From positions 75,179-139,178 of the forward strand of contig JASDVF010000036.1 in assembly GCA_041440805.1 (NCBI GenBank): a DNA stretch of 64,000 nucleotides, given 5' to 3'. The position numbers were made by a program, and so were the translations under genes. The notes under the pieces are model-generated. The model had not been told where the DNA came from. It did not search any database and saw only the letters and a list, made by a program, of their open reading frames with translations. The DNA is from Myxococcota bacterium (GTDB taxonomy: Bacteria > Myxococcota_A > UBA9160 > UBA4427). Positions 17,338-33,579 of this stretch are shown in pieces. The first letter of the stretch is position 1; every line of letters begins with the position of its first letter.

Positions 17338-18270
17338 TTGCGCACCGAGACCTCCGCTTCCTCTGCCACTCCCTCCTGCGTTCTCGCCGGCTCCGAATCA
17401 TTGCTTCTGCAGTGCGGCGCTTTGCTGATCGAGAAGGGGTGGGCCATTCAGCGCGTCGTTTCAAAGAACGACGAAATCCTCGACTGGGCTCGGGAAGCAG
17501 GCATAGAAGTCTGTGCTCCTGGTCGCACGTTGGCGGAGGCACTCGGTTCAGTCGACTTCGACTACTTCTTCAGCATCACGAATCTGTCGATCATCTCAGA
17601 TGAGGTGCTGGCTCTCCCGAAGCGTTCTGCAATCAACTTCCATGACGGACCGCTGCCGGCCTACGCCGGGATGCACACGCCGGCCTGGGCGATTCTGAAT
17701 GGCGAGTCCGAGTACGGCGTCACGTTTCATGAAATGACCGGCGGCGTCGATGAAGGACGCATCCTCGTTCAGAAGCGCTTCGAGCTCGGAGGAGACGAAA
17801 CTTCCCTCGGCATCAATACCAGTTGTTATGCGGCGGCCATCGAAGGCTTCGAAGATCTGATCGGTCAGCTCGCGACCGGGCAAACGAATCCGACGGAACA
17901 AGACTTTTCCCAGCGCAGCTATTACGGGCGCCATCAGCGACCGGAAGGCGCCGGCCTGATCGACTTCTCTGCTTCTGCGGAAGTTCTCTCGCGATGGGTT
18001 CGCGCGATGGATTTCGGGGAGCGCTATGCGAATCCCTTCTGCGCTGCGAAGATTGCCCACGGAGGGGAGCTGCTGCTCGTTCGTTCGGCGACGCTCGCTG
18101 ACGCGGAGAGCACGTCTGCGGGCGCGCTCGTGGCGATTGGTGATGATGGGTGGACAGTAGGAACCGGCGACGGTGCGATTCGTCTGAGTGGCTTTAGGTG
18201 CCCTCGCGGCATTGCGCTCACGCCGCAGGAGGCCGCCGCACGGGTGGGGCTCTCGATAGGGCAGTCGATC
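17338..18270 (+). other. Formyltransferase domain (FMT-like N and C subdomains) of the NRPS
   Basis: A candidate catalytic trio of Asn, His and Asp lies in SITN, NFHDG and VDEGRI. A C-terminal beta-barrel-like segment follows (GELLLVRSATL...GAIRLSGFR). Boundaries are approximate. Confidence 0.75.
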
Positions 18271-21200
18271 GGCGCGACCGATGCGCTTGATCGCACGGCG
18301 ATCTCGACGCTAAACGAAACGTTTGCGCCCTCGGAAGCTTTCTGGGTCCGTCGGCTCGCGAGTCTCGATGCGGTCGAAGCGCCGTATCGGAGTGCCGGCA
18401 GTTCTAACAGTGCCGACGGTTCTAAGAGTACCGACGGTTCCAAGAGTGCCGACGGTTCTAATAGTTCCGCTCCGGTGGATTCGGAAGAGCGCCAGGTTGA
18501 ACGATTCGCTTTGGATCCCGCGGCACTGCTACCCGGACTCTCCGGTAGCGAACGACCCGAGGCCTTGATCGCTGGCTTCGCAGTCTATCTATCGCGCCTT
18601 CAGGGCGTTTCGGATTTTGATCTGACCTGGAGCGAAGACGCTCTACACCAGCGAATTGAGGAAGGGGGCCCCCTCTACTCGAAGCGTGTTCCGATGCGAC
18701 TCGCTGTTGCTGCGGATGCGACGGTCTCGGATGTCATGACGGCAGTGCGCACCGAAATCGGAAAGGTGCGCGACAAGGGCACGTTCCTGATCGATGCGGT
18801 CGCGCGCGATCCACGGCTATCCGCTCATCCGATTCTTTCCCGGGCACGTTGGACTTCTGTCACCGTCGGACTTCATGCGGACTCCGAGAGAACGGCCTTG
18901 CCGAAGGGGTCGGATCTTGGACTCTTTGTGAGTCCGTCTGGCGATGCGGCGCATCTTGCTTTTGATCGTGATGCGATCGATGTGACAGATGCTCGCCGAA
19001 TTCTTGATCAGTTGAGCGTGTTGCTTCGGGCGAGTTCTGATGATTCGCTTGCGATTGCGAAGCTGCCCTTGCTTGCGGACGATGAGCGAAGTCGAATTCT
19101 CTACGAATGGAATCAGACCGCCGCGGACTTTGATCGCACGGCCACTGTGGCTTCCCTGTTCGCTGCTCAGGTCGAGCGAACTCCGGACGCGACGGCCCTC
19201 GTCTTTGAGTCCGAAGAACTGAGCTACCGCGAACTCGATGAGCGGGCGACGAGGCTTGCACATCATCTCGTCGGTCTTGGAATCGGCCCCGATCGCTTGG
19301 TTGGACTCCATCTAGCACGGTCCGCCGACATGCTTGTGGGCGTGTTAGGCGTGCTCAAGGCGGGGGGGGCGTATGTGCCCCTTGATCCGGTCTATCCAGG
19401 AGATCGTATCGCCTACATGATCGAGGACTCGAAAGCCTCGGTTGTGGTGACGCATGCCGCAGCTTCGCCGGCACTTCCGTCCTGTGCGGCGGAAATCGTT
19501 GATCTTGACCGAGAGTCGCGCACGATCGCCACGCGGCCTACGTCGCCTTGCGAGACCCAAAGCGGCGCCGAGAACCTTGCATACGTCATATACACCTCGG
19601 GCTCGACGGGTAAGCCCAAGGGCGTGATGGTCGAACATCGCAACGCGGTCAACTTCTTCGTAGGTATGGATGAGCGCGTCCCTCACGATTCGCCGGGCAA
19701 CTGGCTCGCCGTGACGAGTCTTTCATTCGATATTTCAGTGTTGGAGTTGCTATGGACTCTGACGCGTGGCTTCAAGGTCGTCGTCTTTGCGGATCATGAT
19801 CGGGCTATGGGCGAGTCATCTGCTGCGCCTTGGCGCCCGATCGACATGGGTCTTGCGCTTTGGGGCAGCGATGCGGGCCCGGGGCCGCGCAAATATGAGC
19901 TGATGCTCGAGAGCGCAAAGTTCGCCGACGAACGCGGCTTCTGTGCGGTGCATACGCCGGAACGACATTTTGGTGCCTTTGGCGGGCCCTTCCCTAATCC
20001 GTCGGTGACAGGGGCTGCGATCGCTGCAGTGACCAAGCGGGTTCAGATTCGGGCAAGTAGTTGTGTACTGCCGCTGCATCATCCGATCCGCGTCGCGGAA
20101 GAATGGGCGGTTGTCGATAATATTTCGAATGGTCGAGTAGGGATTTCCTTCGCCTCTGGATGGCAGCCTAACGACTTCGTGATTCGTCCGAGTGCCTTCG
20201 CTAATGCGAAGACTTCTATGTTCGAAAGCGCTGAAATCGTTAGGCGTCTCTGGCGCGGAGATGCAGTCGAATTCGAAAATCCGAATGGCACTATGGTGCC
20301 GACTGCGACACTTCCCCGGCCTGTACAAGAAGAGCTGCCGGTTTGGATTACGACGGCCGGCAACGTAGAAACGTTTCGTGCGGCGGGCGCTGCAGGCGTG
20401 AACGTGCTGACGCATCTCCTGGGGCAGCCCCTCGAAGACCTCGAAGAGAAGATCGTTGCCTATCGCCAAGCGGCGGCGGATGCTGGGCACGACCCCAAGA
20501 AGGGCGTTGTCACCTGCATGCTCCACACCTTTGTTGGCGCGGACGATGCAGAGATTCGGCGCATCGTGCGCGAGCCGATGAAGGAATATCTCGGAAGTGC
20601 GATGGCCCTCGTCGTGGACTTCGCTTGGTCCTTCCCGGCGTTTGAACGGCCTGGGGGGCCAGACTCCAAGCCTGAAGATGTCGATCTTAGGTCGCTCTCC
20701 GGAGACGAAATAGACGCGATTCTCGAATTCGCCTTTGAACGTTATTACGAGACGAGTGGACTCTTTGGTACACCAGAAGTCTGCGAGCGGATGCTGCAGC
20801 GCTGCAAGGATGCCGACATCGACGAAATCGCTTGTCTGATCGACTTCGGGGTTGATACGGACGTCGTGCTAGGCGCACTCGAAGCGCTTGATGATGTGCG
20901 AAAGCTTGTGAACGAACGGCCGGTTGATGCCGTCGAGGCGAGTTCCTCGGATGTGCCGACCGCTGATCATTCCTTCGCGTCGCAGGTCGAACAACATTCC
21001 ATCACTCATCTCCAGTGCACGCCGTCCCACGCGACTATGCTGCTCACGAATCCGCAAACACGGGGAGCTTTCGGGCGAATTCCGCATTTGATGATCGGCG
21101 GCGAAGCATTCCCTGTCTCGCTTGCGGCGGAGCTCGATGGCGTCGCAGCTGGAAACGTAACGAATATGTACGGGCCGACGGAGACGACGATTTGGTCGTC

Positions 21201-22143
21201 GACGCAGCCTGTAGCCGGCAGTCCCGAGACGATCTCGATTGGGACACCGATTGCGAATACCCAGCTCTATATTCTCGACGCACATAACGAGCCGCTGCCT
21301 GTTGGAGTGGCCGGTGAGTTGTGGATTGCGGGGGAGGGTGTCGTTCGTGGCTATCACGAGCGTTCGGATCTGACCGATGAGCGATTCGTTCCGGATCCGT
21401 TTAGTGATCGCGATGGCGCGCGCATGTACCGGACAGGTGACCTTGCGCGATGGACCGAAGAAGGGCGCATCGACTTCCTGGGACGTCTCGATCACCAGGT
21501 GAAGATCCGCGGCTACCGGATTGAACTCGGCGAGATCGAAGCTCGGCTGGCTGGCCTGCCGGGTGTTCGCGAAGCGGTCGTGATCGCGCGCGAAGATGTG
21601 TCGGGAGATGTTCGGTTGGTGGGTTATGTGCTCGCCGAAGGCAATAAGATCGACGAGGGCGCGCTTCGTGACGGATTGCGTGAGCACCTACCGGAGTTCA
21701 TGGTTCCGTCGAATCTCGTTCGACTCGATCGCTATCCGCAGACGCCGAACGGCAAAGTGGACCGGAAAGCCTTGCCGGCGCCGAACGAAGTCGGACAGGT
21801 CTCGCAGGCCGTGTTCGTCGCACCCGAGAGTGATCTCGAGGCGCAGATCGCAATGGTCTGGCGCGAGGTGCTCTATCTCGAGCAGGTCGGCGTGAACGAC
21901 AACTTCTTTGACTTGGGCGGGCATTCGCTGCTCGTCGTTCAGGCACATCGCAAGCTAGCGGGAGTGCTGGAAGTTCCGATTACGCTCACAGATCTCTACC
22001 GCTTCCCGACAATCGCTGGCCTTGCGGAACGTCTCTCCAAGGGAGATCGCTCAGCAGAGGTCGCTGCGGCGAGTCGGGGGCGCGGCGACAAGCGACGTCA
22101 GGCGCTGGAGCGTCGACGTCGTCGGGGCGGCAAAAAGGATTGA
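17338..22143 (+). CDS. NRPS loading-type module: formyltransferase - partial condensation-like region - A domain interrupted by a luciferase-like monooxygenase - PCP
   Basis: 1601 aa with a TTG start at 17338 (no in-frame ATG nearby). INFHDGPLPAYAG begins at 17632. A3 YTSGSTGKPKG at 19591, A4 FDISV at 19726, A5 NMYGPTE at 21163. Also YRTGDLARW, GRLDHQVKIRGYRIELGEIE and PNGKVDR. PCP motif FFDLGGHSL with Ser at 21925-21927. Confidence 0.9.
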   Translation: MRTETSASSATPSCVLAGSESLLLQCGALLIEKGWAIQRVVSKNDEILDWAREAGIEVCAPGRTLAEALGSVDFDYFFSITNLSIISDEVLALPKRSAINFHDGPLPAYAGMHTPAWAILNGESEYGVTFHEMTGGVDEGRILVQKRFELGGDETSLGINTSCYAAAIEGFEDLIGQLATGQTNPTEQDFSQRSYYGRHQRPEGAGLIDFSASAEVLSRWVRAMDFGERYANPFCAAKIAHGGELLLVRSATLADAESTSAGALVAIGDDGWTVGTGDGAIRLSGFRCPRGIALTPQEAAARVGLSIGQSIGATDALDRTAISTLNETFAPSEAFWVRRLASLDAVEAPYRSAGSSNSADGSKSTDGSKSADGSNSSAPVDSEERQVERFALDPAALLPGLSGSERPEALIAGFAVYLSRLQGVSDFDLTWSEDALHQRIEEGGPLYSKRVPMRLAVAADATVSDVMTAVRTEIGKVRDKGTFLIDAVARDPRLSAHPILSRARWTSVTVGLHADSERTALPKGSDLGLFVSPSGDAAHLAFDRDAIDVTDARRILDQLSVLLRASSDDSLAIAKLPLLADDERSRILYEWNQTAADFDRTATVASLFAAQVERTPDATALVFESEELSYRELDERATRLAHHLVGLGIGPDRLVGLHLARSADMLVGVLGVLKAGGAYVPLDPVYPGDRIAYMIEDSKASVVVTHAAASPALPSCAAEIVDLDRESRTIATRPTSPCETQSGAENLAYVIYTSGSTGKPKGVMVEHRNAVNFFVGMDERVPHDSPGNWLAVTSLSFDISVLELLWTLTRGFKVVVFADHDRAMGESSAAPWRPIDMGLALWGSDAGPGPRKYELMLESAKFADERGFCAVHTPERHFGAFGGPFPNPSVTGAAIAAVTKRVQIRASSCVLPLHHPIRVAEEWAVVDNISNGRVGISFASGWQPNDFVIRPSAFANAKTSMFESAEIVRRLWRGDAVEFENPNGTMVPTATLPRPVQEELPVWITTAGNVETFRAAGAAGVNVLTHLLGQPLEDLEEKIVAYRQAAADAGHDPKKGVVTCMLHTFVGADDAEIRRIVREPMKEYLGSAMALVVDFAWSFPAFERPGGPDSKPEDVDLRSLSGDEIDAILEFAFERYYETSGLFGTPEVCERMLQRCKDADIDEIACLIDFGVDTDVVLGALEALDDVRKLVNERPVDAVEASSSDVPTADHSFASQVEQHSITHLQCTPSHATMLLTNPQTRGAFGRIPHLMIGGEAFPVSLAAELDGVAAGNVTNMYGPTETTIWSSTQPVAGSPETISIGTPIANTQLYILDAHNEPLPVGVAGELWIAGEGVVRGYHERSDLTDERFVPDPFSDRDGARMYRTGDLARWTEEGRIDFLGRLDHQVKIRGYRIELGEIEARLAGLPGVREAVVIAREDVSGDVRLVGYVLAEGNKIDEGALRDGLREHLPEFMVPSNLVRLDRYPQTPNGKVDRKALPAPNEVGQVSQAVFVAPESDLEAQIAMVWREVLYLEQVGVNDNFFDLGGHSLLVVQAHRKLAGVLEVPITLTDLYRFPTIAGLAERLSKGDRSAEVAAASRGRGDKRRQALERRRRRGGKKD
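18391..18462 (+). repeat. Four tandem 18-bp units encoding S-A/T-D/G-G/S-S-K/N in the NRPS interdomain linker
   Basis: The four units are agtgccggcagttctaac, agtgccgacggttctaag, agtaccgacggttccaag and agtgccgacggttctaat. They translate to SAGSSN SADGSK STDGSK SADGSN. Confidence 0.9.
19789..20960 (+). other. Luciferase-like (FMN-dependent) monooxygenase domain inserted between A4 and A5 of the adenylation domain
   Basis: About 480 aa separate FDISV (19726) from NMYGPTE (21163), against about 80-90 aa in ordinary A domains. The insert carries LLM-type stretches (ESAKFADERGFCAVHTPERHF, NGRVGISFASGW, ACLIDFG). Boundaries are approximate. Confidence 0.75.
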
Positions 22144-22186: not shown

Positions 22187-25100
22187 ATGAGTGATGAGGA
22201 GATCGGCGAGAATGATATCGCGATCGTGGGCATGGCTTTGCGCGTGCCCGGCGCGAATTCGCCGACAGAGTTCTGGGACAATCTTCAGAACAAGCGTGAG
22301 TCTATCGTCGATTACGATGAGGCGACGATGCTTGCTTCGGGTGAGTCCAAAGAAGTGCTCCGCAATCCGGCTTATGTAAGTCGGGGCGGCGCCCTTGAAA
22401 ACATGAAGCTATTCGATCGTGACTTCTTCGGCTTTAGCCCGAAAGAAGCGGCGATCCTTGATCCCCAGCATCGCCACTTCATGGAGCTGTCCTGGGAAGC
22501 GCTGGAGGATGCCGGCCATACGCCGACTAACTTCGACGGACAGATCGGCGTCTTCGCTGGCTGCGGTATGGGCAGCTACTTCTATTTCAACGTATGCAGT
22601 AACCGTGACCTCGTCGATTCGGTCGGGATGTTCCTGCTTCGACATACGGGCAACGACAAAGACTTTCTCGCGACCAGGGTGTCCTACGTCCTCGACCTCA
22701 AGGGGCCGAGTGTCAATGTACAGACGGCGTGTTCGACGTCCCTCGTCGCAACCCATCTCGCTTGCCAGAGTCTGCTCACCGGCGAGTGTGACCTCGCGCT
22801 GGCAGGCGGTGTCACGATCCAGTTCCCGACGGAAGTCGGCTACGTCTACCGGGACGGCGAGATTCTCGCGCCGGACGGCCATTGTCACTCCTTCGACCAT
22901 CGCGCCCAAGGAACCGTGCTTACGAGCGGCGGTGGCGTTGTTTCGTTGCGTCGGCTCGATGACGCGATTAACGATGGCGACAATATTTATGCTGTCATTA
23001 AGGGCTCTGCTGTTAACAACGACGGTGGCAACAAGGTCGGATACCTAGCACCCAGCGTGGATGGTCAGGCTGCGGCCATGACCGAGGCGTACACGCTCGC
23101 AGAAATCGACCCATCGACGATTGGAATGATCGAGTGTCATGGCACAGGCACTTATATGGGAGATCCGATCGAGGTCGCAGCACTCACCCAAGCTTTCCGC
23201 GCAGCGAATGAAGACAGTGACCAGGGCGACCAGTTTTGCCGTATCGGCTCGGTGAAGTCGAATATCGGTCACCTGGACACGGCGGCTGGTGTTGTTGGGC
23301 TGATGAAGGCCGCGCTCTCCCTTAAGCATCATACAATTCCGGCTTCGCTGAATTTCGAGCGACCGAATCCGGAGATCCGATTCACCGATTCTCCCTTCGT
23401 AGTGAATGATGACACGTACCCTTGGGCGGCGAGCAAGACGCCTAGGCGTGCGGCGGTGAACTCTCTTGGAGTCGGTGGCACGAATGCACATGTCGTCCTT
23501 GAAGAGCACGCATCGGCGGTGACGGCGAACGAAGATGTTTCGCGCGCGCGATTGCTGCAGATATCGGCCAAGAATAAGCGATCGCTCGATGGCGCATGTG
23601 CCCGTCTTAAGACGCACCTAGAGGCGAATCCCGACCTTTCGCTTGGGGATGTCGCCTGGTCTCTGCGTGAGACGCGAGAGAACTTCGAGACACGACGCGT
23701 GTTAGTGGCGAAGGATCGCGAACAGGCTCTTGAGTTGCTCGCGGGACTCGATCCGAGGCGTGTCTTTACGCATAGCGCGGCGGACATCCGAGCCTCGATC
23801 GTGTTCATGTTCTCGGGTGGCGGGAGCCAGTATCCCGGCATGGGCCGAGGCCTTTACGAGAGCGAGCCGATTTTCCGGCAGCATGTTGATCGTGGGTTAG
23901 AACTCTATCGCGAGCGCACGGGATTTGACCTGCGCAGCCTCGTGTTCTGTGATCCGAATCGCGTTGAGCAGGCAGATGGACCTTTGACCGATATGAGTCG
24001 CCAGCTTCCGGCGATCTTCATCGTCGAGTACGCGATGGTGGAGCTTTGGAAGAGCCGCGGTATTGAGCCCTCTCTTCTGATCGGCCACAGCATGGGCGAG
24101 AACGCCGCCGCGTGTATCGCAGGCGTCGTGACCTTCGAGGAATGTCTAGACTGGCTCATTCTGCGAGGACAGCTTTTTGAGAAGACGCCGACGGGTGGCA
24201 TGATCGCGGTTTCGCTCCCGGCGGATGATCTCGTTCCGTACTTGGAAGATTCCTGCGACCTCGCGGCGAGCAATGCGCCTGGCCTAAGTGTGGCTTCTGG
24301 CGGTGTCGCCGAGATCGATGCGCTGGAGAAGCGTCTCGAAGAAGCGGAAATTGACTTTCAGAGAGTCTCGATCGAACGTGCGGCGCATTCGCGACTGCTC
24401 GATCCGATCCTCGATGAGTTCCGGTCATTCGTTGAGAAACTCGATCTCAAAGCGCCGTCGATTCCTTTTATCTCGAATCGAACCGGAGAGCGTATTAGCG
24501 ATAAAGATGCGATAAGCCCCGAGTATTGGGTTCAGCATCTGCGCAACGAAGTGCGCTTTTCGGAAGGGCTCCGCACTATTCTCGCGACGCCCGGACAGAT
24601 TCTTCTCGAAGTGGGACCCGGCCAAGCGCTTTGCAGTTATGCGCGTCAGCAAACCGCACAAGGCGCCTCGACGAACGTGATTCCGTCGCTTCGTCATAAA
24701 GCAGATTCTATCTCCGACGCCGAGTATCTACTCTCGACGATCGGACGGCTCTGGGCTTCGGGGGCGGATGTCGAGCTCGATTCGCTCTACGAGGGCGAGA
24801 CGCGGCGTCGCGTTAGGCTGCCTACCTACACATGGGATCATCAGAGTTATTTCATTGAGCGCGTTGAGGCGGATCTTACCGAGAAGGACTCGGGGCTACC
24901 GGAGCATCTCGAAGATGTGACCGATTGGGGCTTCGCTCCAACCTGGCCGGTGACAGCGCTCGATCCTCGCCAGATTGAGGTTCCCCAGACCTGGCTCATT
25001 TTCATGGACCAAGTCGGAATCGGCCGGCGCTTAAAGACGCGACTAGAAGACGCGGGACATTCGGTCGTCAGCGTCTTTGTCGCCGATAGCTATCGCAAAC

Positions 25101-28100
25101 GTTCTGCCGATGAATATTCGCTTTCGCCCGAGTTAGGCGCGGAAGGGTATTCGGCCCTGATGCGGGATCTCGCCGCCGAAGGTCGGATGCCGACACAGAT
25201 CGTGCATCTTTGGCTGACCTCCGATGTTGAACGCTTTCGTCCCGGATCGAGCTTCTTCCACGAAAACCTCCAGAATGGCTTTTATAGTCTCTACTTCCTG
25301 GCGCGGGCGCTCGCGAACGAGAGCCTGCCCGGCGATGTACACCTAACGGTCGTCTCGAATGGGTTGCAGTCGATTCTTGAGGGCGATGGTCCGCTCTATC
25401 CTGCGAAGGCGACCGTGCTTGGTCCCGTCGAGGTGATTCCGCGCGAGTTGCCTGGTGTGACCTGCAAGAGCGTTGACATCACGCTGCCGCTCAAGGGGCA
25501 AGCGGCTTTGCGCGAACGCTTCTTGGGTCGGCGGAAGAGCGTTGGCGCTCGTCCCGCGAATCTTGATGACGTGACAGATCAACTCGAGCGCGAAGTGCTC
25601 GCCGCCTCAGAATGCGACATCGTCGCGCACCGCGGGGGTGAGCGTTATGCACGGCGCTTCGAAGCTCGCCCACTGCCCGAGCGCACAGGGGATTCGAACG
25701 CATCCCTCGTTGATGAGGGCACCTACCTCATCACGGGCGGTCTAGGCGGCCTTGGATTCACCCTGGCGGATCGACTCGCACGAGAAGTTCGTGGCGCGAA
25801 GCTCGTCTTGGTGGGGCGTACGGCATTACCCGATCCGTCGGAATGGGAGGCCCTGGAGCGAAACGGCGGAGCATCGTCTCGCGATCTAGGCTGCATTCGT
25901 CGTATACGAGGACTCGAAGCGGCCGGTGCAGAGGTAATGACCTTGGCCGCGGACGTGACGAATTTCGATGAGATGCGTCGCGGTATCGATGCCGTGCGTG
26001 AGCGCTTCGGCAAAGTTCACGGCGTGTTCCATGCGGCAGGTGTTGTTGCAGACGAACTCATTCAGTTGAAGACCGATGCCGCTATCGAGCGCGTCTTCGG
26101 GCCGAAGGTGCACGGCACGCAGGTGCTTGCCAGTTTGCTCGAAGAAGCGGGCGCGGAACTTCTCGTTCTTTATTCCTCGACGAGTGCGATTACGGCGCCG
26201 CCTGGACAGGTGGACTACGCCGCAGCGAATTCTTTCCTGGATGCCTTCGCTCAGAGCCGCAAGGACCATCCTATTCGAACGCTCGCGGTGAACTGGGGCA
26301 TTTGGAATGAAGTCGGGCTCGCTGCCGCTTCCCTCGATCGGAACAAGGAGACGCACGGAGCCGAACAGGCCTACGCCGTCCAGCATCCCCTCTTTGATAC
26401 TCGGGAACAAGACTCCCACGGTCGTACAGCCTTCTTCAAGAGCTTTTCCCCGCAACGGGATTGGGTACTCGAAGAACATCGAACAGCGAACGGCGAAGCC
26501 CTCTACCCGGGAGCGGGTTACCCGGAGCTCGCGCGAGCAGCTCTAGCTGAATACGGCGAAACGGGTCCTTTCGAGATTCAGGATCTCTACTTCCTTAGGC
26601 CGCTCTATGTGCCGGACGGAGAAGTTCGTGATGTGCGAGTGCTGCTCGAACCGAACGATCTCGGCTACCGCTTCAGCGTCCGAACACGTCATAGAGTAGA
26701 GGGCCGGCCGGCGTGGATGCTGACCGCCGAAGCAACGCTCATATTAGGCGAAGGGGCACCCTCGCGTACTGTCGACCTTGATGAGATTGACGCGCGATGT
26801 GGAGCCCAGCGCTCCCACGTAAATCCCCTCGGACATGCGTCCGGTCAGGAGAACCATGTTCGCTTCGGGCCGCGGTGGCGCGTGTTGCGGCAGGTTTTGT
26901 ATGGGGAAGCTGAAGCGCTCGCATATCTCGAGGTGCCCGATGAGTTCGAAGGAGATCTAGAGGACTTTCAATTTCATCCGGCTCTGCTCGACTACGCGAC
27001 CGGATACGCGATGGGGCTCATCCCCGGCTATGACCCGAATGGCGCACTCTGGATTCCTGTTTCTTACGGAAGCATCAAGCTCGAAGCACCTCTCGAAAAG
27101 AAGATCAGTAGTTGGGTCCGCTTGCGAAATGGTGACGAGGCCGGCGGCTTCGCGTCTTTCGATATCGTGATCACGTCTGACGACGGTCGCGTGCTCTTCG
27201 AAGCCGAAGACTTCACGATTAAGCGCGTCGAAGGCGAAGTGGACTTCTCCGAGCCCGTCGACGGAAACGCTAGCGACATAGAGTTCGAAGCTTCGAATCA
27301 AGCGAAGGGCGACGATGATCTCTCTCCGGCGGAGCTGCACCTGCGGCGAAACTACGAGGTAGGGATTGGCCCAGAGGAAGGCACCGAGGCTCTCATGCGC
27401 GTCCTTGCTACCGACTCGGGGCCGCAAATGGTCGTGACGTCGATCAATCTTGACTATCTGATTCGTCAGGCAGACACGGTCGTCGCAGAGTCATCGAATA
27501 GCGGCGCGCGCTTCGAACGTCCCGCCCTCGACAGCGAATACGAAGCGCCGCGTGATGAGATCGAAAAAACGCTCGGGGCTTTATGGGAAGACTTGCTAGG
27601 TGTTGATGGTCTCGGGATTTACGACAACTTTTTTGATCTAGGCGGACATTCGCTGATTGCGGTTCGTTTCTTTACGAAGATTAAGAAGGCCTACCGGGTC
27701 GACTTCCCGATCTCGATTCTCTTCGAGGCGCCTACCATTGAGGGCTGCGCGGAACTGATTCGGGAGACGATCGGCGATGACTCTTCCCGCGCAGTTGGGG
27801 CGAGCGAAGAGGATGGCACGGCAGCGACGCGTCGAACTCGCTTCAAGCATCTTGTTGCGATGGATGCGGGAGGCGGCGCAGGTGGCCCAAATAAACCTTT
27901 CTTTCTGGTCGCGGGCATGTTTGGCAACGTTTTGAATCTGCGTCATCTCGCAGCGCTCGTGGGCACGGATCGACCGTTCTACGGCCTACAAGCGCGTGGG
28001 CTCTATGGGGATGAAAAGCCTCACGAGACGTTCGAAGAGATGGCCTCGACGTACATCGAAGAGATTCGACAGGTGCAGCCGGAAGGCCCCTACACGATTG

Positions 28101-28690
28101 GCGGGTTCTCGGGCGGCGGCATCACTGCTTTCGAGATGGCGCATCAGCTTCAGGCGGCTGGTGAGACTGTGCAGAGTGTCGTCCTATTGGACTCGATTCT
28201 GCCACAGCTTCCGCCGCTTACCGCGATGGACCGGATTCGTGTGCAGGCTATGCGGCTTAAGCAGCGCGGTGCTGGCTATTTGTGGGAATGGGTACGCAAC
28301 CGCGCGAAGTGGCAGATGGAACAACTCGAGGCGCGCTTTAGTGACGGCTCCGAAGATGTGCGTGCAGAGGATGAGTTCCATGATGTTCAGATCGAGCGAG
28401 CATTCCGAGCGGCGCTGCCGATTTACCCCATGCAGCGCTACGAAGGGCATGTGCATCTCTTTCGACCTAAGCTTGACCGTGCCTATGTACTCGGTCCCGA
28501 TCGTATTCTTAACAGCGACAAACAATGGATCTACGCGGACAACGGTTGGGGACAATGGGTCGAGTCAATCGAGACTTATGAGATGCCCGGTAATCACGAC
28601 AGCATGGTGCTCGAACCGAACGTTCGTGTGATGGCTTCGCGCTTGCGAGAACTGCTCGAAGCGAAGCCAGGCGATGTGAAAGACCGGTAG
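22187..28690 (+). CDS. Type I polyketide synthase, KS-AT-KR-DH-carrier-TE
   Basis: 2167 aa.
- KS: Cys in TACSTS at 22730, plus ECHGTGT and GHLDTAAG.
- AT: GHSMGE with Ser at 24089; second motif is AAHS.
- KR: GTYLITGGLGGLG at 25718, with YSSTS...YAAAN.
- DH: HRTANGEALYPGAGY with His at 26477, plus HPALLDYATGY.
- Carrier: FFDLGGHSL with Ser at 27650.
- TE: GFSGGG, with a distal GNHDS. Confidence 0.9.
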   Translation: MSDEEIGENDIAIVGMALRVPGANSPTEFWDNLQNKRESIVDYDEATMLASGESKEVLRNPAYVSRGGALENMKLFDRDFFGFSPKEAAILDPQHRHFMELSWEALEDAGHTPTNFDGQIGVFAGCGMGSYFYFNVCSNRDLVDSVGMFLLRHTGNDKDFLATRVSYVLDLKGPSVNVQTACSTSLVATHLACQSLLTGECDLALAGGVTIQFPTEVGYVYRDGEILAPDGHCHSFDHRAQGTVLTSGGGVVSLRRLDDAINDGDNIYAVIKGSAVNNDGGNKVGYLAPSVDGQAAAMTEAYTLAEIDPSTIGMIECHGTGTYMGDPIEVAALTQAFRAANEDSDQGDQFCRIGSVKSNIGHLDTAAGVVGLMKAALSLKHHTIPASLNFERPNPEIRFTDSPFVVNDDTYPWAASKTPRRAAVNSLGVGGTNAHVVLEEHASAVTANEDVSRARLLQISAKNKRSLDGACARLKTHLEANPDLSLGDVAWSLRETRENFETRRVLVAKDREQALELLAGLDPRRVFTHSAADIRASIVFMFSGGGSQYPGMGRGLYESEPIFRQHVDRGLELYRERTGFDLRSLVFCDPNRVEQADGPLTDMSRQLPAIFIVEYAMVELWKSRGIEPSLLIGHSMGENAAACIAGVVTFEECLDWLILRGQLFEKTPTGGMIAVSLPADDLVPYLEDSCDLAASNAPGLSVASGGVAEIDALEKRLEEAEIDFQRVSIERAAHSRLLDPILDEFRSFVEKLDLKAPSIPFISNRTGERISDKDAISPEYWVQHLRNEVRFSEGLRTILATPGQILLEVGPGQALCSYARQQTAQGASTNVIPSLRHKADSISDAEYLLSTIGRLWASGADVELDSLYEGETRRRVRLPTYTWDHQSYFIERVEADLTEKDSGLPEHLEDVTDWGFAPTWPVTALDPRQIEVPQTWLIFMDQVGIGRRLKTRLEDAGHSVVSVFVADSYRKRSADEYSLSPELGAEGYSALMRDLAAEGRMPTQIVHLWLTSDVERFRPGSSFFHENLQNGFYSLYFLARALANESLPGDVHLTVVSNGLQSILEGDGPLYPAKATVLGPVEVIPRELPGVTCKSVDITLPLKGQAALRERFLGRRKSVGARPANLDDVTDQLEREVLAASECDIVAHRGGERYARRFEARPLPERTGDSNASLVDEGTYLITGGLGGLGFTLADRLAREVRGAKLVLVGRTALPDPSEWEALERNGGASSRDLGCIRRIRGLEAAGAEVMTLAADVTNFDEMRRGIDAVRERFGKVHGVFHAAGVVADELIQLKTDAAIERVFGPKVHGTQVLASLLEEAGAELLVLYSSTSAITAPPGQVDYAAANSFLDAFAQSRKDHPIRTLAVNWGIWNEVGLAAASLDRNKETHGAEQAYAVQHPLFDTREQDSHGRTAFFKSFSPQRDWVLEEHRTANGEALYPGAGYPELARAALAEYGETGPFEIQDLYFLRPLYVPDGEVRDVRVLLEPNDLGYRFSVRTRHRVEGRPAWMLTAEATLILGEGAPSRTVDLDEIDARCGAQRSHVNPLGHASGQENHVRFGPRWRVLRQVLYGEAEALAYLEVPDEFEGDLEDFQFHPALLDYATGYAMGLIPGYDPNGALWIPVSYGSIKLEAPLEKKISSWVRLRNGDEAGGFASFDIVITSDDGRVLFEAEDFTIKRVEGEVDFSEPVDGNASDIEFEASNQAKGDDDLSPAELHLRRNYEVGIGPEEGTEALMRVLATDSGPQMVVTSINLDYLIRQADTVVAESSNSGARFERPALDSEYEAPRDEIEKTLGALWEDLLGVDGLGIYDNFFDLGGHSLIAVRFFTKIKKAYRVDFPISILFEAPTIEGCAELIRETIGDDSSRAVGASEEDGTAATRRTRFKHLVAMDAGGGAGGPNKPFFLVAGMFGNVLNLRHLAALVGTDRPFYGLQARGLYGDEKPHETFEEMASTYIEEIRQVQPEGPYTIGGFSGGGITAFEMAHQLQAAGETVQSVVLLDSILPQLPPLTAMDRIRVQAMRLKQRGAGYLWEWVRNRAKWQMEQLEARFSDGSEDVRAEDEFHDVQIERAFRAALPIYPMQRYEGHVHLFRPKLDRAYVLGPDRILNSDKQWIYADNGWGQWVESIETYEMPGNHDSMVLEPNVRVMASRLRELLEAKPGDVKDR

Positions 28691-28828: not shown

Positions 28829-29965
28829 ATGGGCGAGATTTCGGATGCCCTTGCTAGGGCGCAAGAGGCCGAAAAAACAAAGCGTCCCGTTGAGCCGCGT
28901 GAAACACCGCCGCTCGCCGAGGAACGCGAACGCCCGCATTCCGCTTTGATGCGGGAAGCGGCGGATGCACCTCCAGCATCTCCGCCTCCAGTCTCGAAGA
29001 GATCCGCGCCTCCTTCAGAGGGCTGCGTTTCGACATCTTCATCACCGTCTTCATCATCCCGGTCGTCGACCGCGCGCGCGGATGAGACCGAGAGAACGAA
29101 TGAAGTTGGCCCGTCCGAAGCGGTGGTTGAAGCCGATCCTGTGGTCCCTGCGCCCGGCGTAGCTTCTTCGCTTAGCCACGGATTGGAGCAGGCCGATGAC
29201 CGCACGAAAAAGCGACATCAGATCTCAACGCCCCGTGCCGACGGGTGGATCGGCCGGATCTGCGCGGTTGAGCCTGAGGCCGATGCGTCCGTACGCTTCC
29301 GCCATCTGGCTGTGCGTATGCGTTCGATGTTGGACGGCCGCCGGCAGCCTTCAGTCCTGGTAACGAGCTCGTTTTCTGGGGAAGGCAAGACGACGGTATC
29401 CTGCAATCTCGCGATTGCGCTCGCTTCGATTTCGCCGGAATGCCGGATCGCGCTAGTCGATATGGATCTTCATAGAGGCTGTGTTTCTCGGACGATGAAT
29501 TATTCAGGGCAGGTCGGGATCGAGGACGTGATGCGAGGCGATGCTTCGCTCAGTGACGCGTGCGTCGAAACCGAGATGCCGGCACTCGATTTCTATCCGG
29601 TCTGCAATCCGGTCCAAGATGCGCATGGACTGTTAGGCGGTGCCGCAGGACGGACCTTGGAAAATTTTCACGCGCGTTACGACTACGTGATTTGTGACGG
29701 TCCGCCCGTACTTCCGGTGCCCGACGTGCCTTTGATCGCGCCGCACGTGGGTGGTTGTTTGGTCGTCGCTGCGTCGGGACGCTCACGACATAGAGCCTTC
29801 AGAGAGACACTTAGTCTGATCCCACGTGGGATGACGCTTGGGGTGTTCCTGAACGAGAATCCCGGCGCGCTTCGCTCGCGGAGCTACAAATACTATTCCG
29901 GTTCGCGGCCGGAGGACTCTGATTCCGGCGTCGACGCGGACGGCGTCGAGGAGGCGAATCGATGA
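28829..29965 (+). CDS. Polysaccharide-locus tyrosine autokinase (BY-kinase, EpsG-like)
   Basis: ORF 28790-29965. Preferred ATG is at 28829 (MGEISDALARA). Walker A is SGEGKTT, Walker A' is LVDMDLHRG, Walker B is YVICDGPPV. C-terminal Tyr cluster SYKYYSG. The N-terminal region of about 150 aa is Pro/Ser-rich. Confidence 0.8.
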   Translation: MGEISDALARAQEAEKTKRPVEPRETPPLAEERERPHSALMREAADAPPASPPPVSKRSAPPSEGCVSTSSSPSSSSRSSTARADETERTNEVGPSEAVVEADPVVPAPGVASSLSHGLEQADDRTKKRHQISTPRADGWIGRICAVEPEADASVRFRHLAVRMRSMLDGRRQPSVLVTSSFSGEGKTTVSCNLAIALASISPECRIALVDMDLHRGCVSRTMNYSGQVGIEDVMRGDASLSDACVETEMPALDFYPVCNPVQDAHGLLGGAAGRTLENFHARYDYVICDGPPVLPVPDVPLIAPHVGGCLVVAASGRSRHRAFRETLSLIPRGMTLGVFLNENPGALRSRSYKYYSGSRPEDSDSGVDADGVEEANR

Positions 29966-31419
29966 GTCGGTCGGCCGACTTCGACGACTTCGGGGATAGC
30001 GGCGATGCGGAGGAATCCGGCGCATTGCCCGGATTCGTAACCGATCCCGTCGGTGTCCTTAAGCGACGCTGGATGTGGATGGTGCCAGTTCTGCTGATTG
30101 GCGCTGTGTTGAGTGGCTACTATTTGTATCAGCGGAGTCCCGAGTTCGCGGCGCGTGCGACGATTCTCGTTTCGAGTCAGAAAATCTCGCAGCAGTTCTT
30201 TATTTCGACGATCGAATCCGATCAGCTCGAGAAGGTCAGCGCGATTCTCGGCGAGTTGCTGTCCCGCAAGAACCTCGCGAAACTCGTAGCTCAGCACGAT
30301 CCGTACTCTGTGGTTGGCGACGTCGAAGTCCTTACGCTCGAAGATAAAATCGGAATCATGCGCAGTCGGATCGTGATCGGACCCGACCGCAGGAACGCTG
30401 CGAACTTCGACGAAAACAGTTCCGCAACGGTATTTGAAGTGCGCTTTGCCTCCGGTGATGCGCAGAAGACTGCCGACATCGTGAATGCCCTAGCGACCGG
30501 ATTCACTGATATCCACCTTCGCATGCGGAGTCGGCAAGCGCGCCTAACGACTGATTTCCTTCGAGCCGAGCAAGAGCAGGCTGAAGAAGACCTCTCTCGC
30601 CAAGAGCGCAAAATTACGGAATTCAAGAAGAGGTATCGCGGTGAGCTTCCGAGCGAACTCGCGACGAGTTTGGGTCGGCTCGATCGGTTGCAGAGCCAGA
30701 GGCAGTCCCTCGCTTTGCAGATCGCGGAAACAGAAAGCCGCCTGGCTTCGCTGGCTGCGAGCGGGAATGACGTCGAGCTGGACTCTCCTGAGGCGCTGCT
30801 CCGATCCCTCAGGACCCGGTATAAGTCACAGCGTTCGCTGTATACGGAAGAACATCCGAATCTGGTGGCTATTCGGCGTCAGATAGAGAACCTAAAGGCG
30901 CAGATTGCCGAGGATGGGATCGAGGTTCCGCTTGAGGCGGAGCAGGCGACGACGCTTGCCGGCGCGGCGCGATTTACTCTGACCGAGTTGCGACGACAAC
31001 TCGCCCAGACCGAGACTGAATTCGAAGTTCTCGATCGCCGTGTGGCTCTGGTTCCGGAGCGCCAAGAAGAGTTGGCGGGCCTTGAACAGCGCGCCGAATT
31101 TCTGCGAGAGAATCATAGAGAGCTCCTGCGTAAGGTGGGTCAAGCAGAGCTTGCGCAGGCGGTTGAGTCGGCGCAGCAGGGCGAGCGTGCGACTGTGATC
31201 GACAGAGCAGTGACGCCGATGCGACCCGATTCGTCTCCGCTTAAGATGTTAGTGGTGCTGATTGTCGGAACTTTCGGTGCCGCGATCGCATTGGCGATCC
31301 TGCTTGAGTTGGTTGATCCAGTGATCGTGAGTGCGAGCGAGATCGAGGCGAATTACCGAGTTCCTGTGATCGGGTCGATTCCGCGACTGGATGATACCGG
31401 GAGCGGGCAGCGCGGCTGA
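29962..31419 (+). CDS. Chain-length determinant (Wzz/GumC/EpsF-like)
   Basis: 485 aa. N-terminal TM followed by a Wzz-type segment (FAARATILVSSQ), a long coiled-coil periplasmic region, and a C-terminal TM. The start overlaps the kinase stop by 4 nt. Confidence 0.8.
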   Translation: MSRSADFDDFGDSGDAEESGALPGFVTDPVGVLKRRWMWMVPVLLIGAVLSGYYLYQRSPEFAARATILVSSQKISQQFFISTIESDQLEKVSAILGELLSRKNLAKLVAQHDPYSVVGDVEVLTLEDKIGIMRSRIVIGPDRRNAANFDENSSATVFEVRFASGDAQKTADIVNALATGFTDIHLRMRSRQARLTTDFLRAEQEQAEEDLSRQERKITEFKKRYRGELPSELATSLGRLDRLQSQRQSLALQIAETESRLASLAASGNDVELDSPEALLRSLRTRYKSQRSLYTEEHPNLVAIRRQIENLKAQIAEDGIEVPLEAEQATTLAGAARFTLTELRRQLAQTETEFEVLDRRVALVPERQEELAGLEQRAEFLRENHRELLRKVGQAELAQAVESAQQGERATVIDRAVTPMRPDSSPLKMLVVLIVGTFGAAIALAILLELVDPVIVSASEIEANYRVPVIGSIPRLDDTGSGQRG

Positions 31420-32229
31420 TGGCTGAGGTCGCGAGCGATCCCCTCGCTCCGAAGAGCGAATCACCGCTTTGGCTAGCCGCGATCGCGTTTGGACTGATGG
31501 CCGCTTTCTGGCCGGTCGTGTCCGATCTAGGGCGCCATGTTGTGGTCCATCCATGGGCGCGCGGTGCAATTGTCTTTCCCTTGCTCGTCTGGATAGCGGT
31601 TCGTGCTGAGGCGGCAAAGGCGGGGCCGGAGCGCCGCTGGGTCTTATGGTTGGCTTTGCCGATAGCGTTGGCCATCGAGTTAGTCGCAGTCGCCGGTGAC
31701 GTAGTGCGCCTCGGGCGAGTGGCTCTGGTTCTTGCGGCTGCAGCAAGCCTCTTCGCAACGGGTAGAGCGGGGTTATTGACCCTTGCGCTCACGCTCTGGC
31801 TGATTCCCTTGCCTTCCGCCATTGCAGGAATTCTGAGTCCGAGCCTCGAATCAACATGGGCACAGATCGCCGCATCTCTGATAGTAGGAGTTTCTTTCGC
31901 GGCGGGTCCGGAGGGTCCCATGCTATCGACGGAGGCGGGCGGGCGTGTGTTGCTGGTGCCGGCCGATGGCGGGCTTGGCCTGGTTTCAGGAGCTGATGCG
32001 GAGACTCCCCATGCATAGGCTTATGGGTCGCTCTGTAATGGCCGCGCTCTTTTCGCTCCCAATTCATCTAGGAGTGATTGGGCTCGCTACGATTGTGTTG
32101 TCGTTATCGCCCATGGGTTTGGTCGCGCAAAGGCTCCTCGATCAGGGGCCGTGGCTGATCGTGGTCTTGGCAGGGCTCGTGCTCGCCGTGCGTGATCGCG
32201 TGCCCAATACTGCAGGAGAGACGAGTTGA
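31419..32229 (+). pseudogene. Exosortase (EpsH/Xrt)-like polytopic membrane protein, split over two overlapping frames (31419-32018 and 31945-32229)
   Basis: Sits directly upstream of the EpsI gene and is coupled to it. The N-terminus has an exosortase-like shape (WPVVSDLGRHVVVHPWARGAIVFPLLVWIAVR). Combined length is about 270 aa. The 199-aa ORF contains no Cys. The second frame continues with TM helices. Confidence 0.5.
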
Positions 32230-32897
32230 ACCGACGTGTCGAGTTAGGCGTAGCGATCGGGTTGATGCTCCTCACGGGCATCGCCTCGTGGTGGCTTTTG
32301 CTTCGTCCCATCGTTGAGCATGACGCAGCGGTATTTGATGCTTTGCCCACCGAATTGAACGGATGGCGATCTGTTGATCTCACGATCGATCAGGCCGTCT
32401 CGGATATGTTGGCGGCGGATCACAACGTGCAGCGCGCCTACCTTCATCCCCTTGGCTACCTAATTTTCGTTTACGTAGGCTACTACGGCACCGAACGCGG
32501 AGGGACCCCGGAGCACACTCCTGACATTTGCTATCCGGCACAAGGATGGCAGATCGTAGAGTCAATGATTCAGAGGGCCGGCGGGCAGGGCGGCTTCGAT
32601 CTCCGCGAGTTCGTTGTGGAGCAGGCAGGGGAGCGCCGGCTGGTGCATTACTGGTATCGGACCGGAAGCGAGAGCGGGTTGACCTCTGTGGTTGGACTTA
32701 GACTCCGTCACGTTCTCGATCGCATGACCGAAAAACGGGGGGACGGGGCGCTCGTTCGACTCAGTACGCCGCTTGGCAGCTCAGATATCGCAAGTGCCCG
32801 AACTCGGCTCTTTTCGATGGGTCGCGTCGTTGAAGAAGCGCTTGTGGGTCTCTGGCCTAACGACAGTCAATCTGTCGCCGTATTGTCAGGGCACTGA
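32226..32897 (+). CDS. epsI: EpsI-family exosortase-associated protein
   Basis: 223 aa with a TTG start overlapping the upstream stop (TTGA). N-terminal TM, then LPTELNGW...VYVGYYGTERGG..EHTPDICYPAQGWQI...LVHYWY, which matches the EpsI pattern. Confidence 0.8.
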   Translation: MNRRVELGVAIGLMLLTGIASWWLLLRPIVEHDAAVFDALPTELNGWRSVDLTIDQAVSDMLAADHNVQRAYLHPLGYLIFVYVGYYGTERGGTPEHTPDICYPAQGWQIVESMIQRAGGQGGFDLREFVVEQAGERRLVHYWYRTGSESGLTSVVGLRLRHVLDRMTEKRGDGALVRLSTPLGSSDIASARTRLFSMGRVVEEALVGLWPNDSQSVAVLSGH

Positions 32898-32901
32898 CTC
32901 G

Positions 32902-33579
32902 ATGTCTACAAAGAGCGGGGCGGAGAGCGAATTTTCGAAGCTGACTCACGGCTTCGTCGATCCTGAATTCTGGGTAGAGGCCTCGTCGCTTCGATACGGG
33001 ATTGGGGATCTCGCGCCCGCCGAACGACCTTTAGCAGAGAAGGCAATCGCCTCGCGACAGCGCGAATTCGCGACGGGCCGCGTGCTCGCACACCGTTTGC
33101 TCGATCAAGCGGGGCACGAGGCCTCAGCGTTGTTGCGAGACGAGGACCGCGTGCCCGAGTGGCCGTCTGGGATCGTAGGATCGATCACGCATTGCGATTC
33201 TCTTTGCGTGGTGGCAGTAGGGAGCAACGAGACCCATGCTGGGGTAGGGCTCGATGTTGAGCCGGATGAGCCGGTCTCTTCGGGTGTCGAACGCGTGGTG
33301 TGTCGGCCTGAGGAAGGCCCGTGGCTCGATGGCGCGTCCGATGATGAGGACCGCGCTCGACGGGTTCGACTCATCTTCAGCGTGAAAGAAGCGACCTACA
33401 AGGCATTCTATCCCGAGCTTCGAACGTTCTGGAGTTTTCAGGACGTTCATGTCGCAGTCGACGAATCAGCCGAGCGATTTATTGCCCATTTGCCGGACGG
33501 GCCAGACGTGCGCGAAATTGAGGGTCGCGTACTGCGGCGGCGTGGCTGGATTCTCTCAAGCGTTTGCCGCCGAAGGTAG
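32902..33579 (+). CDS. 4'-phosphopantetheinyl transferase (EntD/Sfp type)
   Basis: ORF 32773-33579. The ATG at 32902 lies 4 nt after the EpsI stop. Motifs are REFATGR, GSITHCDSLCVVAV, GLDVEP and FSVKEATYKAF. Confidence 0.85.
   Translation: MSTKSGAESEFSKLTHGFVDPEFWVEASSLRYGIGDLAPAERPLAEKAIASRQREFATGRVLAHRLLDQAGHEASALLRDEDRVPEWPSGIVGSITHCDSLCVVAVGSNETHAGVGLDVEPDEPVSSGVERVVCRPEEGPWLDGASDDEDRARRVRLIFSVKEATYKAFYPELRTFWSFQDVHVAVDESAERFIAHLPDGPDVREIEGRVLRRRGWILSSVCRRR

Follow-up and report, generated by a model that had tools for sequence, protein, structure and literature searches.

The closest described relative of the locus studied here is an orphan gene cluster of the Roseobacter lineage, consisting of a nonribosomal peptide synthetase (NRPS), a polyketide synthase (PKS), a glycosyltransferase (GT) and a phosphopantetheinyl transferase (PPTase). 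This cluster, attributed to Martens et al. and described in Collins et al. 2015, occurs in 28 of 57 Roseobacter genomes and has no characterised product (PMC4337385). That description covers the four genes only and makes no mention of their being embedded in a polysaccharide locus. We analysed a stretch of 64,000 nt from a Myxococcota bacterium (contig JASDVF010000036.1, positions 75,179 to 139,178; hereafter the window), in which an NRPS, a PKS, a family-2 glycosyltransferase (GT2, 15697-16713) and an Sfp-type PPTase are identified by their sequences as that conserved orphan cassette. Here, and in most of its relatives, the cassette is accompanied by polysaccharide genes.

Three other known systems resemble parts of the locus. 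A formyltransferase (FT) domain, a glycine-activating adenylation (A) domain and a carrier that feeds a PKS constitute the loading logic of oxazolomycin (OzmO), conglobatin (CongA) and rhizopodin (PMC4504003). In MtaG (myxothiazol), MelG (melithiazol) and SolF (solanimycin), a flavin monooxygenase lies between a4 and a5 of a glycine A domain, where it is predicted to carry out alpha-hydroxylation (PMC10204066). Finally, the window shares several components with the XrtA/PEP-CTERM exopolysaccharide (EPS) loci, as represented in Haft's TIGRFAM/NCBIfam set.

The four-gene cassette and its polysaccharide neighbourhood

Gene coordinates and spacings were taken from a six-frame list of the open reading frames (ORFs) of the window. 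The list reproduced the seven co-directional genes of the initial annotation, with successive spacings of 43, 138, -4, -1, -4 and +4 nt, except that the exosortase-like gene is broken. Together with the GT gene that diverges from them, they are:

15697-16713, - strand: GT2b, soluble family-2 glycosyltransferase, divergent from the NRPS, third cassette member (Pfam Glycos_transf_2, Glyco_tranf_2_3)
17338-22143, + strand: NRPS, 1601 aa (Pfam/NCBIfam)
22187-28690, + strand: type I PKS, 2167 aa (Pfam/NCBIfam)
28829-29965, + strand: bacterial tyrosine kinase (BY-kinase)-like P-loop protein (Pfam AAA_31, CbiA; Walker motifs)
29962-31419, + strand: Wzz-type chain-length determinant, a polysaccharide co-polymerase (Pfam Wzz, 25.3 bits; TIGR03007)
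31419-32018, + strand: exosortase-like gene, N-terminal fragment (Exosortase_EpsH, 30.5 bits)
32011-32229, + strand: exosortase-like gene, C-terminal fragment, original frame (matched by the C-terminal end of P0121 and P0122, which are intact at 278 aa)
32226-32897, + strand: EpsI (DUF3485), exosortase-associated periplasmic protein, intact (PF11984, 135.7 bits; TIGR02914, 107 bits)
32902-33579, + strand: Sfp-type 4'-phosphopantetheinyl transferase, fourth cassette member (4PPT_N, ACPS)

The cassette was recognised by four features, all of which were found in the window: an NRPS of ~1550-1600 aa with an FT domain, an A domain split by a luciferase-like monooxygenase and a carrier (T) domain; an adjacent PKS with the domains KS-AT-KR-DH-ACP-TE; an orthologous GT2; and an Sfp-type PPTase. 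The PKS adjoins the NRPS in nearly every orthologous locus examined, and all true NRPS orthologues that were found have this PKS as their partner. Orthologues of GT2b (37-60% identity), a protein without a predicted transmembrane (TM) segment, are encoded directly beside the PKS or the NRPS in most loci and between the two in Rhodobacteraceae. The PPTase gene follows the NRPS in the Rhodobacteraceae, Agrobacterium and Aminobacter loci. A search of 5.8 billion protein clusters with the NRPS retrieved 579 proteins at E <= 1e-30, and the best 120 of these were nearly all full-length (1500-1600 aa) with an identical Pfam set. Among the matches listed, the named sources were Myxococcota, Cellvibrionaceae/Agarilytica, Planctomycetota (Aureliella) and others, the nearest named homologues being from Myxococcota metagenome-assembled genomes (58-64% identity).

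Full-length NRPS, PKS and GT2 homologues with the same domain order were found in Antarctobacter, Roseovarius, Nioella, Ruegeria and related genera, at per-domain identities of 40-66% to the window proteins. The gene order differs, being PKS-GT2-NRPS-PPTase in the Roseobacters and a divergent GT2 followed by NRPS-PKS in the window, where a kinase-Wzz-exosortase-like-EpsI block stands between the PKS and the PPTase. The locus of Antarctobacter heliothermus reads GT4, GT2, flippase, PKS, GT2, NRPS, PPTase, Wzz, kinase-like, sugar epimerase/oxidoreductases, GT2 and GT4, with overlaps of 4 nt at both the PKS/GT2 and the GT2/NRPS junction. The 3768-aa assembly line had been regarded as lying outside described gene sets, but the cassette is already known, as an orphan, from the Roseobacter lineage (PMC4337385). 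What is new is its presence in the window lineage, the export genes between the PKS and the PPTase, and a Cys-less exosortase homologue paired with EpsI. Also new is a quantified cross-phylum link of the cassette to polysaccharide loci, a statement that we did not find in the searchable literature.

This link was measured in homologous loci. A metagenome scan anchored on the DH-ACP-TE region yielded 80 further loci and more than 429 relatives. The cassette is common: about half of the Roseobacter genomes sequenced so far contain it, and its carriers span five or more phyla or classes. The survey used phmmer and home-built hidden Markov models (HMMs) on six-frame ORFs, and dereplication at 85% TE identity gave 74 clusters, 48 of which were represented by loci of at least 18 kb. 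As controls we used 61 non-orthologous NRPS/PKS loci, 40 of them long. They came from a contig scan for which the whole NRPS alignment had served as the query; true orthologues made up only about 20 of its 79 loci, as one search pattern fell in the T domain.

An NRPS was found nearby in 45 of the 48 long loci, the orthologous GT2 in 42 and the PPTase in 29. Wzz was encoded nearby in 27, the kinase in 20 and Wzx in 19, and 32 long loci contained at least one of Wzz, kinase, Wzx and Wza, compared with none of the 40 long controls (Fisher p = 3e-12). The orthologous GT2 was absent from all 61 control loci. When further conserved GTs and Wzy-like genes were counted along with the export genes, 43 of the 48 loci contained at least one. 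In contrast, an exosortase or EpsI gene of any kind was present in only six. The polysaccharide link is therefore general and the exosortase link minor. The proposal that the assembly line is tied to polysaccharide biosynthesis and is not a chance neighbour was thus upheld, given flanks that recur across phyla and are absent from control loci. The location of homologous pairs had been named at the outset as a point on which the proposal could fail; they usually lie with EPS genes, as proposed, and usually without exosortase genes.

The flanking GT2, further GTs and Wzx, Wzz, BY-kinase or Wza genes recur in Alpha-, Beta- and Gammaproteobacteria, Planctomycetota and the window clade, in varying order. 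Synteny is as in the window in L001 (69% identity) and L085 (93%). The NRPS-PKS pair of L082 (59% identity) is surrounded by genes for GT2, GT4, Alg13/14-like proteins and a flippase. Behind the pair of the planctomycete Aureliella (L083) come a GT2 gene and an export gene of the Wza type. The pair of Agarilytica (L002) is located just downstream of an XrtA-type block that comprises a system ATPase (TIGR03015-like), Wzz, kinase, an exosortase-EpsI fusion and a tetratricopeptide-repeat (TPR) protein. According to PGAP annotations, the cassette is encoded among GTs, a sugar transferase, a DegT aminotransferase and acyltransferases on a plasmid of Ruegeria sp. SCSIO 43209, with a CpsD/CapB kinase and a sugar transferase on Parasedimentitalea marina pW43C, and with O-antigen-ligase-family, Wza and flippase genes on Aminobacter niigataensis paAMD1.

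From these data, we estimate at about 0.5 the probability that the cassette operates as a module of a Wzx/Wzy-type polysaccharide locus, making a unit that would be joined to a sugar and to the glycan. A literature search retrieved no characterised product or mutant phenotype of the cluster, and no NRPS/PKS genes in PEP-CTERM loci. Papers on myxoglucamide and on hybrid polyunsaturated fatty acid (PUFA) lipids were considered as matches and set aside, since they concern unrelated clusters.

The NRPS and the PKS

The domain calls made initially for both megasynthases were borne out by Pfam and NCBIfam. The NRPS contains Formyl_trans_N/C, AMP-binding in two pieces, AMP-binding_C and PP-binding, and its AMP-binding domain is split by a luciferase-like monooxygenase of the MupA/Atu3671 type (TIGR04020, 474 bits). 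FT occupies residues 1-300 and is followed by a truncated condensation (C)-like region (~380-590), the A domain (600-823 and 1211-1473), with the monooxygenase (849-1188) between its two pieces, and the T domain (1503-1566, serine S1530). The insertion site lies between A4 (FDIS, 797-800) and A5 (NMYGPTE, 1276-1282), as in MtaG, MelG and SolF. In an alignment of 12 NRPS sequences (46-70% identity), the FT triad N100/H102/D138, the A-domain core motifs and the carrier serine were invariant. The A-domain pocket was read by hand as D798, I799, L802, Q1226, M1252, G1254, M1277, I1285, W1286 and K1473, which gives the specificity code DILQMGMIWK; across the family, each of these ten residues is invariant or almost invariant. 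Because this code is nearly identical to DILQLGLIWK, which we take to be a glycine code, the A domain is probably glycine-specific.

The region at 380-590 resembles only the C-terminal half of a condensation domain, and the evidence for this is weak: a match to Txo2 (E = 8e-4) and a PF00668 annotation on a few homologues. It lacks the HHxxxDG motif. Its linker to FT is a low-complexity Ser/Asp/Gly/Lys repeat, SADGSKSTDGSKSADGSNSS (window 18388-18471, NRPS residues 351-378). The FT domain itself is nearer to the UDP-Ara4N formyltransferase ArnA (78 bits) and other sugar N-formyltransferases than to the F domain of LgrA (22 bits).

By analogy with the F-A(Gly)-PCP loading modules, in which PCP is a peptidyl carrier protein, FT would formylate carrier-bound glycine (PMC4504003). 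The window NRPS shares with OzmO, CongA and rhizopodin modules an N-terminal FT with the Asn-His-Asp triad, a glycine-type A domain and a carrier, followed by a PKS KS. However, its A domain is interrupted by the monooxygenase, FT and A are separated by a half C domain, and the line continues with one PKS module only. No obvious cyclodehydratase of the CongE/OzmP type was seen among the ORFs scanned, where the sole PP-loop enzyme was AsnB. The embedded monooxygenase would alpha-hydroxylate the glycine, by analogy with the monooxygenases that interrupt other glycine A domains at the a4/a5 junction (PMC10204066). There is a difference in position: the MtaG/MelG module ends its line and its carbinolamide fragments to an amide, whereas the window module starts the line, so that the hydroxylated unit would be extended. 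The C-terminal tail of the NRPS is strongly basic (RRRRRGGKKD) and the N-terminus of the PKS is acidic (MSDEEIGEND); the two look like an electrostatic docking pair.

The PKS has the domain order ketosynthase (KS), acyltransferase (AT), KR-prefix (psiKR)/ketoreductase (KR), dehydratase (DH), PP-binding acyl carrier protein (ACP) and thioesterase (TE). The protein amounts to one module, which has one ACP and lacks an enoylreductase (ER). As read from the sequence, all catalytic residues are present: C181/H318/H362 in KS, GHS634MG and R659 in AT, Y1344 in KR, H1431/D1602 in DH, S1822 in ACP and S1984/D2002/H2137 in TE. AT carries an atypical RAAH motif, and KR a B-type-like VAD motif. The closest solved relatives of KS-AT are modular cis-AT PKSs such as CurL and DEBS, and those of KR and DH are MlnE, PksJ and CurF/CurK. 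The match to PfaA (TIGR02813) reached 391 bits, far under the cut-off of 1010. With no PfaA/HglE-like KS-AT and a single rather than a tandem ACP, the protein falls outside the PUFA and heterocyst-glycolipid types. An iterative PKS of the PUFA/enediyne kind, which the KR-before-DH order had suggested, was not supported by the nearest solved relatives, which are modular.

Since KS-AT, KR and DH are all closest to modular PKSs, we infer a single extension round. For a line that consists of a single NRPS module, of glycine type, and a single PKS module, of modular type and lacking ER, the simplest prediction for the product is a C4 enoyl unit derived from N-formyl-(alpha-hydroxy)glycine, not a lipid. 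The lipid-like product and the heterocyst-glycolipid logic of the initial annotation are not favoured by this architecture.

The PKS genes of some relatives deviate from this pattern. In L084 (14789-23743), the protein is 2984 aa long and has additional domains, and in L009 (14654-21269) two overlapping ORFs are found, which may reflect a frameshift or a sequencing error. Methylmalonyl-CoA-mutase/B12-binding and MeaB genes are located directly upstream of the NRPS in Agarilytica (L002 8390-9798) and Aureliella (L083 6864-9930), and a MeaB homologue stands at the start of locus L116.

The kinase, Wzz, exosortase-like and EpsI genes

The 138-nt gap between the PKS and the kinase contained no terminator-like hairpin and no sigma-70-like site in a promoter/terminator scan, the counts of which did not exceed shuffled expectation, and its folding was not unusual (z = -1.4). 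The sequence is thus compatible with a single transcript over the gap. The longest ORF of the kinase begins at GTG 28790, and the start at ATG 28829 agrees with the gene call in the 93% relative. The protein has the BY-kinase motifs GEGKTT, VDMDLHRG and DYVICDGPP (Walker A, A' and B) and a C-terminal YKYY cluster, and consists of a cytoplasmic catalytic domain with a long disordered N-terminus. A C-terminal TM segment was predicted for Wzz.

EpsI is a true member of the XrtA-associated family, with a TIGR02914 score over the cut-off (42.8). Its second-best NCBIfam match was the C-terminal part of XrtD (103 bits). Wzz, the tyrosine kinase, AsnB and a GT4 of the window also have their best or near-best matches among XrtA-system families, but components other than EpsI remained under the equivalog cut-offs: the kinase scored 97.6 bits with TIGR03018 (cut-off 230.65), Wzz 155 bits with TIGR03007 (278.85) and AsnB 504 bits with the XrtA/PEP-CTERM amidotransferase TIGR03108 (816.9).

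The exosortase-like gene had been described as a single gene at 31419-32229. That interval measures 811 nt, which is not a multiple of 3, and contains two ORFs in different frames. A DNA alignment with L085, a contig with a 93%-identical NRPS, placed a 26-nt deletion of the window between 31971 and 31972; the ORF is intact in L085 (278 aa), and in L085 and related contigs it encodes 278-284 aa. The truncated 199-aa allele also exists as a database cluster (P0124; 13 member sequences, 4 contigs, two sources) that differs from the window in two residues, and the 100%-identical contig L086 has the same two fragments. Since the truncated allele, in slightly diverged form, is found again in further assemblies, the deletion is a real allele and not an assembly slip.

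The family of this protein comprises only five 90% clusters among 5.8 billion representative proteins, without a precomputed Pfam hit. The exosortase-EpsI fusion of Agarilytica has the motif EACSGLRY, whereas in the window clade the Cys position is taken up by AGG, DGG or EGG, with DGG in place of the catalytic CSG in the window copy, and the conserved Arg is lacking. The proteins P0121-P0123 contain no cysteine at all. The protein of the window is, as judged by these residues, not a transpeptidase, and its gene is disrupted in this genome. The Cys-less gene is nevertheless intact beside EpsI in relatives down to 61% PKS identity (L087, L088, L089 and L001). Compared with L087, dN/dS was 0.35-0.43 for the exosortase fragments, 0.40 for the kinase, 0.17 for Wzz, 0.13 for EpsI and 0.08 for the PKS. 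The values of the fragments are above those of PKS, EpsI and Wzz and similar to that of the kinase; pseudogenisation is neither proved nor excluded. A conserved exosortase homologue that lacks catalytic residues and is still paired with an intact EpsI is a small puzzle for how exosortase systems work.

Two tail scans of the window ORFs detected no PEP-CTERM-like or other signal composed of a motif, a TM segment and a basic tail; genes for PEP-CTERM substrates may lie in other parts of the genome. A marker search of the whole window retrieved no homologue of PrsT or the system ATPase; PrsK and PrsR were not among the ORFs scanned, although they were not specifically searched for. Because Wzz, the kinase and AsnB are under the equivalog cut-offs and the exosortase is both dead and broken, the XrtA-like components are best understood as a relative of the XrtA system that is derived and in part vestigial. 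The exosortase connection of the initial annotation is weak.

Some relatives of the cassette do have exosortase-related neighbours. In L139 (5256-6140), a short metagenomic contig, a canonical exosortase (EACAGLRY, Cys present) is encoded directly after the cassette GT2, a third independent exosortase adjacency. A homologue of the XrtA/PEP-CTERM system-associated ATPase, detected with the TIGR03015-like gene of Agarilytica as the seed, lies directly upstream of the PKS in L105, L107, L113, L114, L117 and L127 (~4.7 kb), and no exosortase was detected within 10 kb in these six loci. On the Ruegeria sp. SCSIO 43209 plasmid, a VPLPA-CTERM protein gene (XrtD-type substrate; L166 22980-23666) is located 2.3 kb downstream of the cassette.

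Proposed role of the cassette and the remaining genes of the window

As a module of the polysaccharide locus, the cassette would act as follows. The PPTase would prime the T and ACP domains, and the A domain would load glycine on T. FT would N-formylate this glycine while it is tethered, in the manner of the OzmO, CongA and LgrA loading modules, and the monooxygenase would hydroxylate the glycyl alpha-carbon, as in MtaG and MelG. The single PKS module would add one malonyl-type unit, which KR and DH would convert into a 4-formamido-(4-hydroxy)but-2-enoyl thioester. After release by TE, the soluble GT2 would join this small unit to a sugar, and the conjugate would be built into the glycan, or start or cap it. 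Neighbouring GTs would build the glycan, and the Wzy-like protein, Wzz and BY-kinase would handle it. In the window lineage, the kinase-Wzz-(exosortase-like)-EpsI block would have been inserted between the PKS and the PPTase. The attachment of the unit to the glycan is inferred.

Several points weigh against this scheme. The affinity of FT for ArnA means that its substrate could be an amino sugar instead of tethered glycine, and an alpha-hydroxylated N-formylglycine could fragment instead of being extended, as in myxothiazol. The RAAH motif of AT is neither a malonyl nor a methylmalonyl signature, so the extender unit is uncertain; together with the methylmalonyl-CoA mutase and MeaB genes that adjoin the cassette in two distant loci, it hints at a methylmalonyl or other branched unit. 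Five of the 48 long loci have no polysaccharide gene within 10 kb, a count that is soft, like all gene absences here, as the survey HMMs were home-made and the flanks limited to that distance. Those five loci would also suit a glycosylated small molecule that is released and diffusible, for instance a signal, an antibiotic or a chelator, and whose cassette merely shares regulation or neighbourhood with surface-polysaccharide genes. A TE with a Ser-Asp-His hydrolase triad, a dedicated GT and a PPTase would suffice, with the NRPS and PKS, to make such a glycoside, and the cluster has been treated as a secondary-metabolite cluster (PMC4337385). We nevertheless consider this explanation rather unlikely, given the excess of export genes over controls, an association that outlasts several independent rearrangements across phyla, and the location of the window export genes inside the cassette. 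Moreover, marker searches flagged no conserved small-molecule exporter, although none was specifically searched for.

Two further explanations assign the product to an anchor. An iterative PKS could build a long unsaturated chain on N-formylglycine, which GT2 would turn into a glycolipid anchor or primer of the glycan. The KR-before-DH order, which resembles that of PfaA and enediyne-type iterative synthases, the GT gene adjacent to the pair in 42 of 48 long loci and the lack of an initiating sugar-phosphate transferase among the window ORFs scanned would fit this idea. It is improbable, however, with KS-AT, KR and DH nearest to modular enzymes and PfaA a much weaker NCBIfam match, a single ACP, no ER and a soluble GT2; initiating-type sugar transferase genes are also found in other cassette loci. 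Still more improbable is a product that serves as the acceptor or anchor for exosortase-type attachment of PEP-CTERM or VPLPA-CTERM proteins, which would have a parallel in the N-acyl amino acid synthases linked to exosortase loci (see below). Canonical XrtA-type genes adjoin the cassette in Agarilytica and L139, EpsI is present in the window clade and L009, and the VPLPA-CTERM gene of the Ruegeria plasmid lies close by. Yet exosortase and EpsI genes are rare in the long loci, the window-clade homologue lacks both catalytic residues and is frameshifted in the window, and no sorting-signal tails are encoded there. As exosortase systems accompany EPS loci generally, the link may be indirect.

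If the cassette is indeed a module of polysaccharide loci, a broader reading, offered tentatively and at less than even odds, is that Wzx/Wzy-dependent polysaccharides of several phyla carry, or start on, an assembly-line N-formylglycine diketide. The Roseobacter cluster would then be a glycan-tailoring or priming module and not a secondary-metabolite cluster, and in exosortase-bearing lineages the EpsI and exosortase homologues could recognise the decorated glycan or the unit. Its position inside Wzx/Wzz/BY-kinase loci turns an orphan "secondary metabolite" into a surface-glycan hypothesis that is testable in culturable, mutable organisms.

Upstream of the cassette, the window encodes:

2545-3765, - strand: GT4 glycosyltransferase (GT1b), recurrent with the cassette (EpsE-like, 233 bits)
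3778-5439, - strand: stand-alone DltA-like amino-acid adenylation enzyme (TIGR01733, 329 bits, over cut-off)
5439-5711, - strand: 90-aa carrier protein with an LLSSLD motif
5711-6739, - strand: AurF-like di-iron oxygenase
9337-10338, + strand: GT2a glycosyltransferase, recurrent with the cassette (homologues in other cassette loci)
10390-12249, + strand: AsnB-type amidotransferase (Asn_synthase; TIGR03108)
12317-13852, - strand: candidate Wzy-like polymerase, polytopic, 511 aa, ~7 TM segments (TM prediction)

Homologues of the GT4 (34-46% identity) were found in Rhodobacteraceae, L004, L006 and L009, and those of GT2a (41-50%) in L004, L006, L007, L010-L012, L014 and L052. AsnB recurs only within the clade of the window. 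The Wzy-like protein has no Pfam or NCBIfam hit, and its homologues are encoded in 13 dereplicated cassette loci and in no control locus. The upstream 17 kb had been described as consisting entirely of GT and sugar-modification genes, but it also encodes an adenylation enzyme, a carrier protein, the AurF-like oxygenase, a fatty-acid-hydroxylase-family protein, a 2-oxoglutarate (2OG) oxygenase and the Wzy-like protein.

The translationally coupled genes at 3778-6739 (- strand) constitute a second carrier-protein pathway, after which come two GT4 genes. The set is not conserved in other cassette loci. It suggests that the glycan also receives a tethered, oxidised amino acid. Dlt-type and XrtA-associated decoration by an A domain and a carrier is similar in that carrier or amino-acid chemistry is encoded inside an envelope-polymer locus, and the window has a DltA-like A domain beside the 90-aa carrier. 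Craig, Cherry and Brady are said to have linked N-acyl amino acid synthases to exosortase loci in 2011. The enzyme families of the window differ from those synthases and from Dlt-type systems, and no DltB or DltD homologues were identified. The transfer of a thioester-bound product to a glycan is a conjecture here.

Two neighbouring ORFs with FG-GAP repeats (37891-38265 and 38441-39211, + strand), located downstream of a gene for GDP-mannose 4,6-dehydratase, may together represent a single split gene whose product would be a secreted repeat protein; neither showed a C-terminal sorting signal. An Rfam scan for riboswitches or other RNA elements near the operon had a single match in the window, a tRNA at 44469-44541 (+ strand), which sits just beyond the polysaccharide and NRPS-PKS region. 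The genes past it are unrelated and encode a short-chain dehydrogenase/reductase (SDR), a glutathione S-transferase (GST)-like protein, TetR, a sulfatase, a RecQ-like helicase and a P450. GC content rises there from ~0.59 to ~0.62, and the tRNA may mark the edge of a genomic island.

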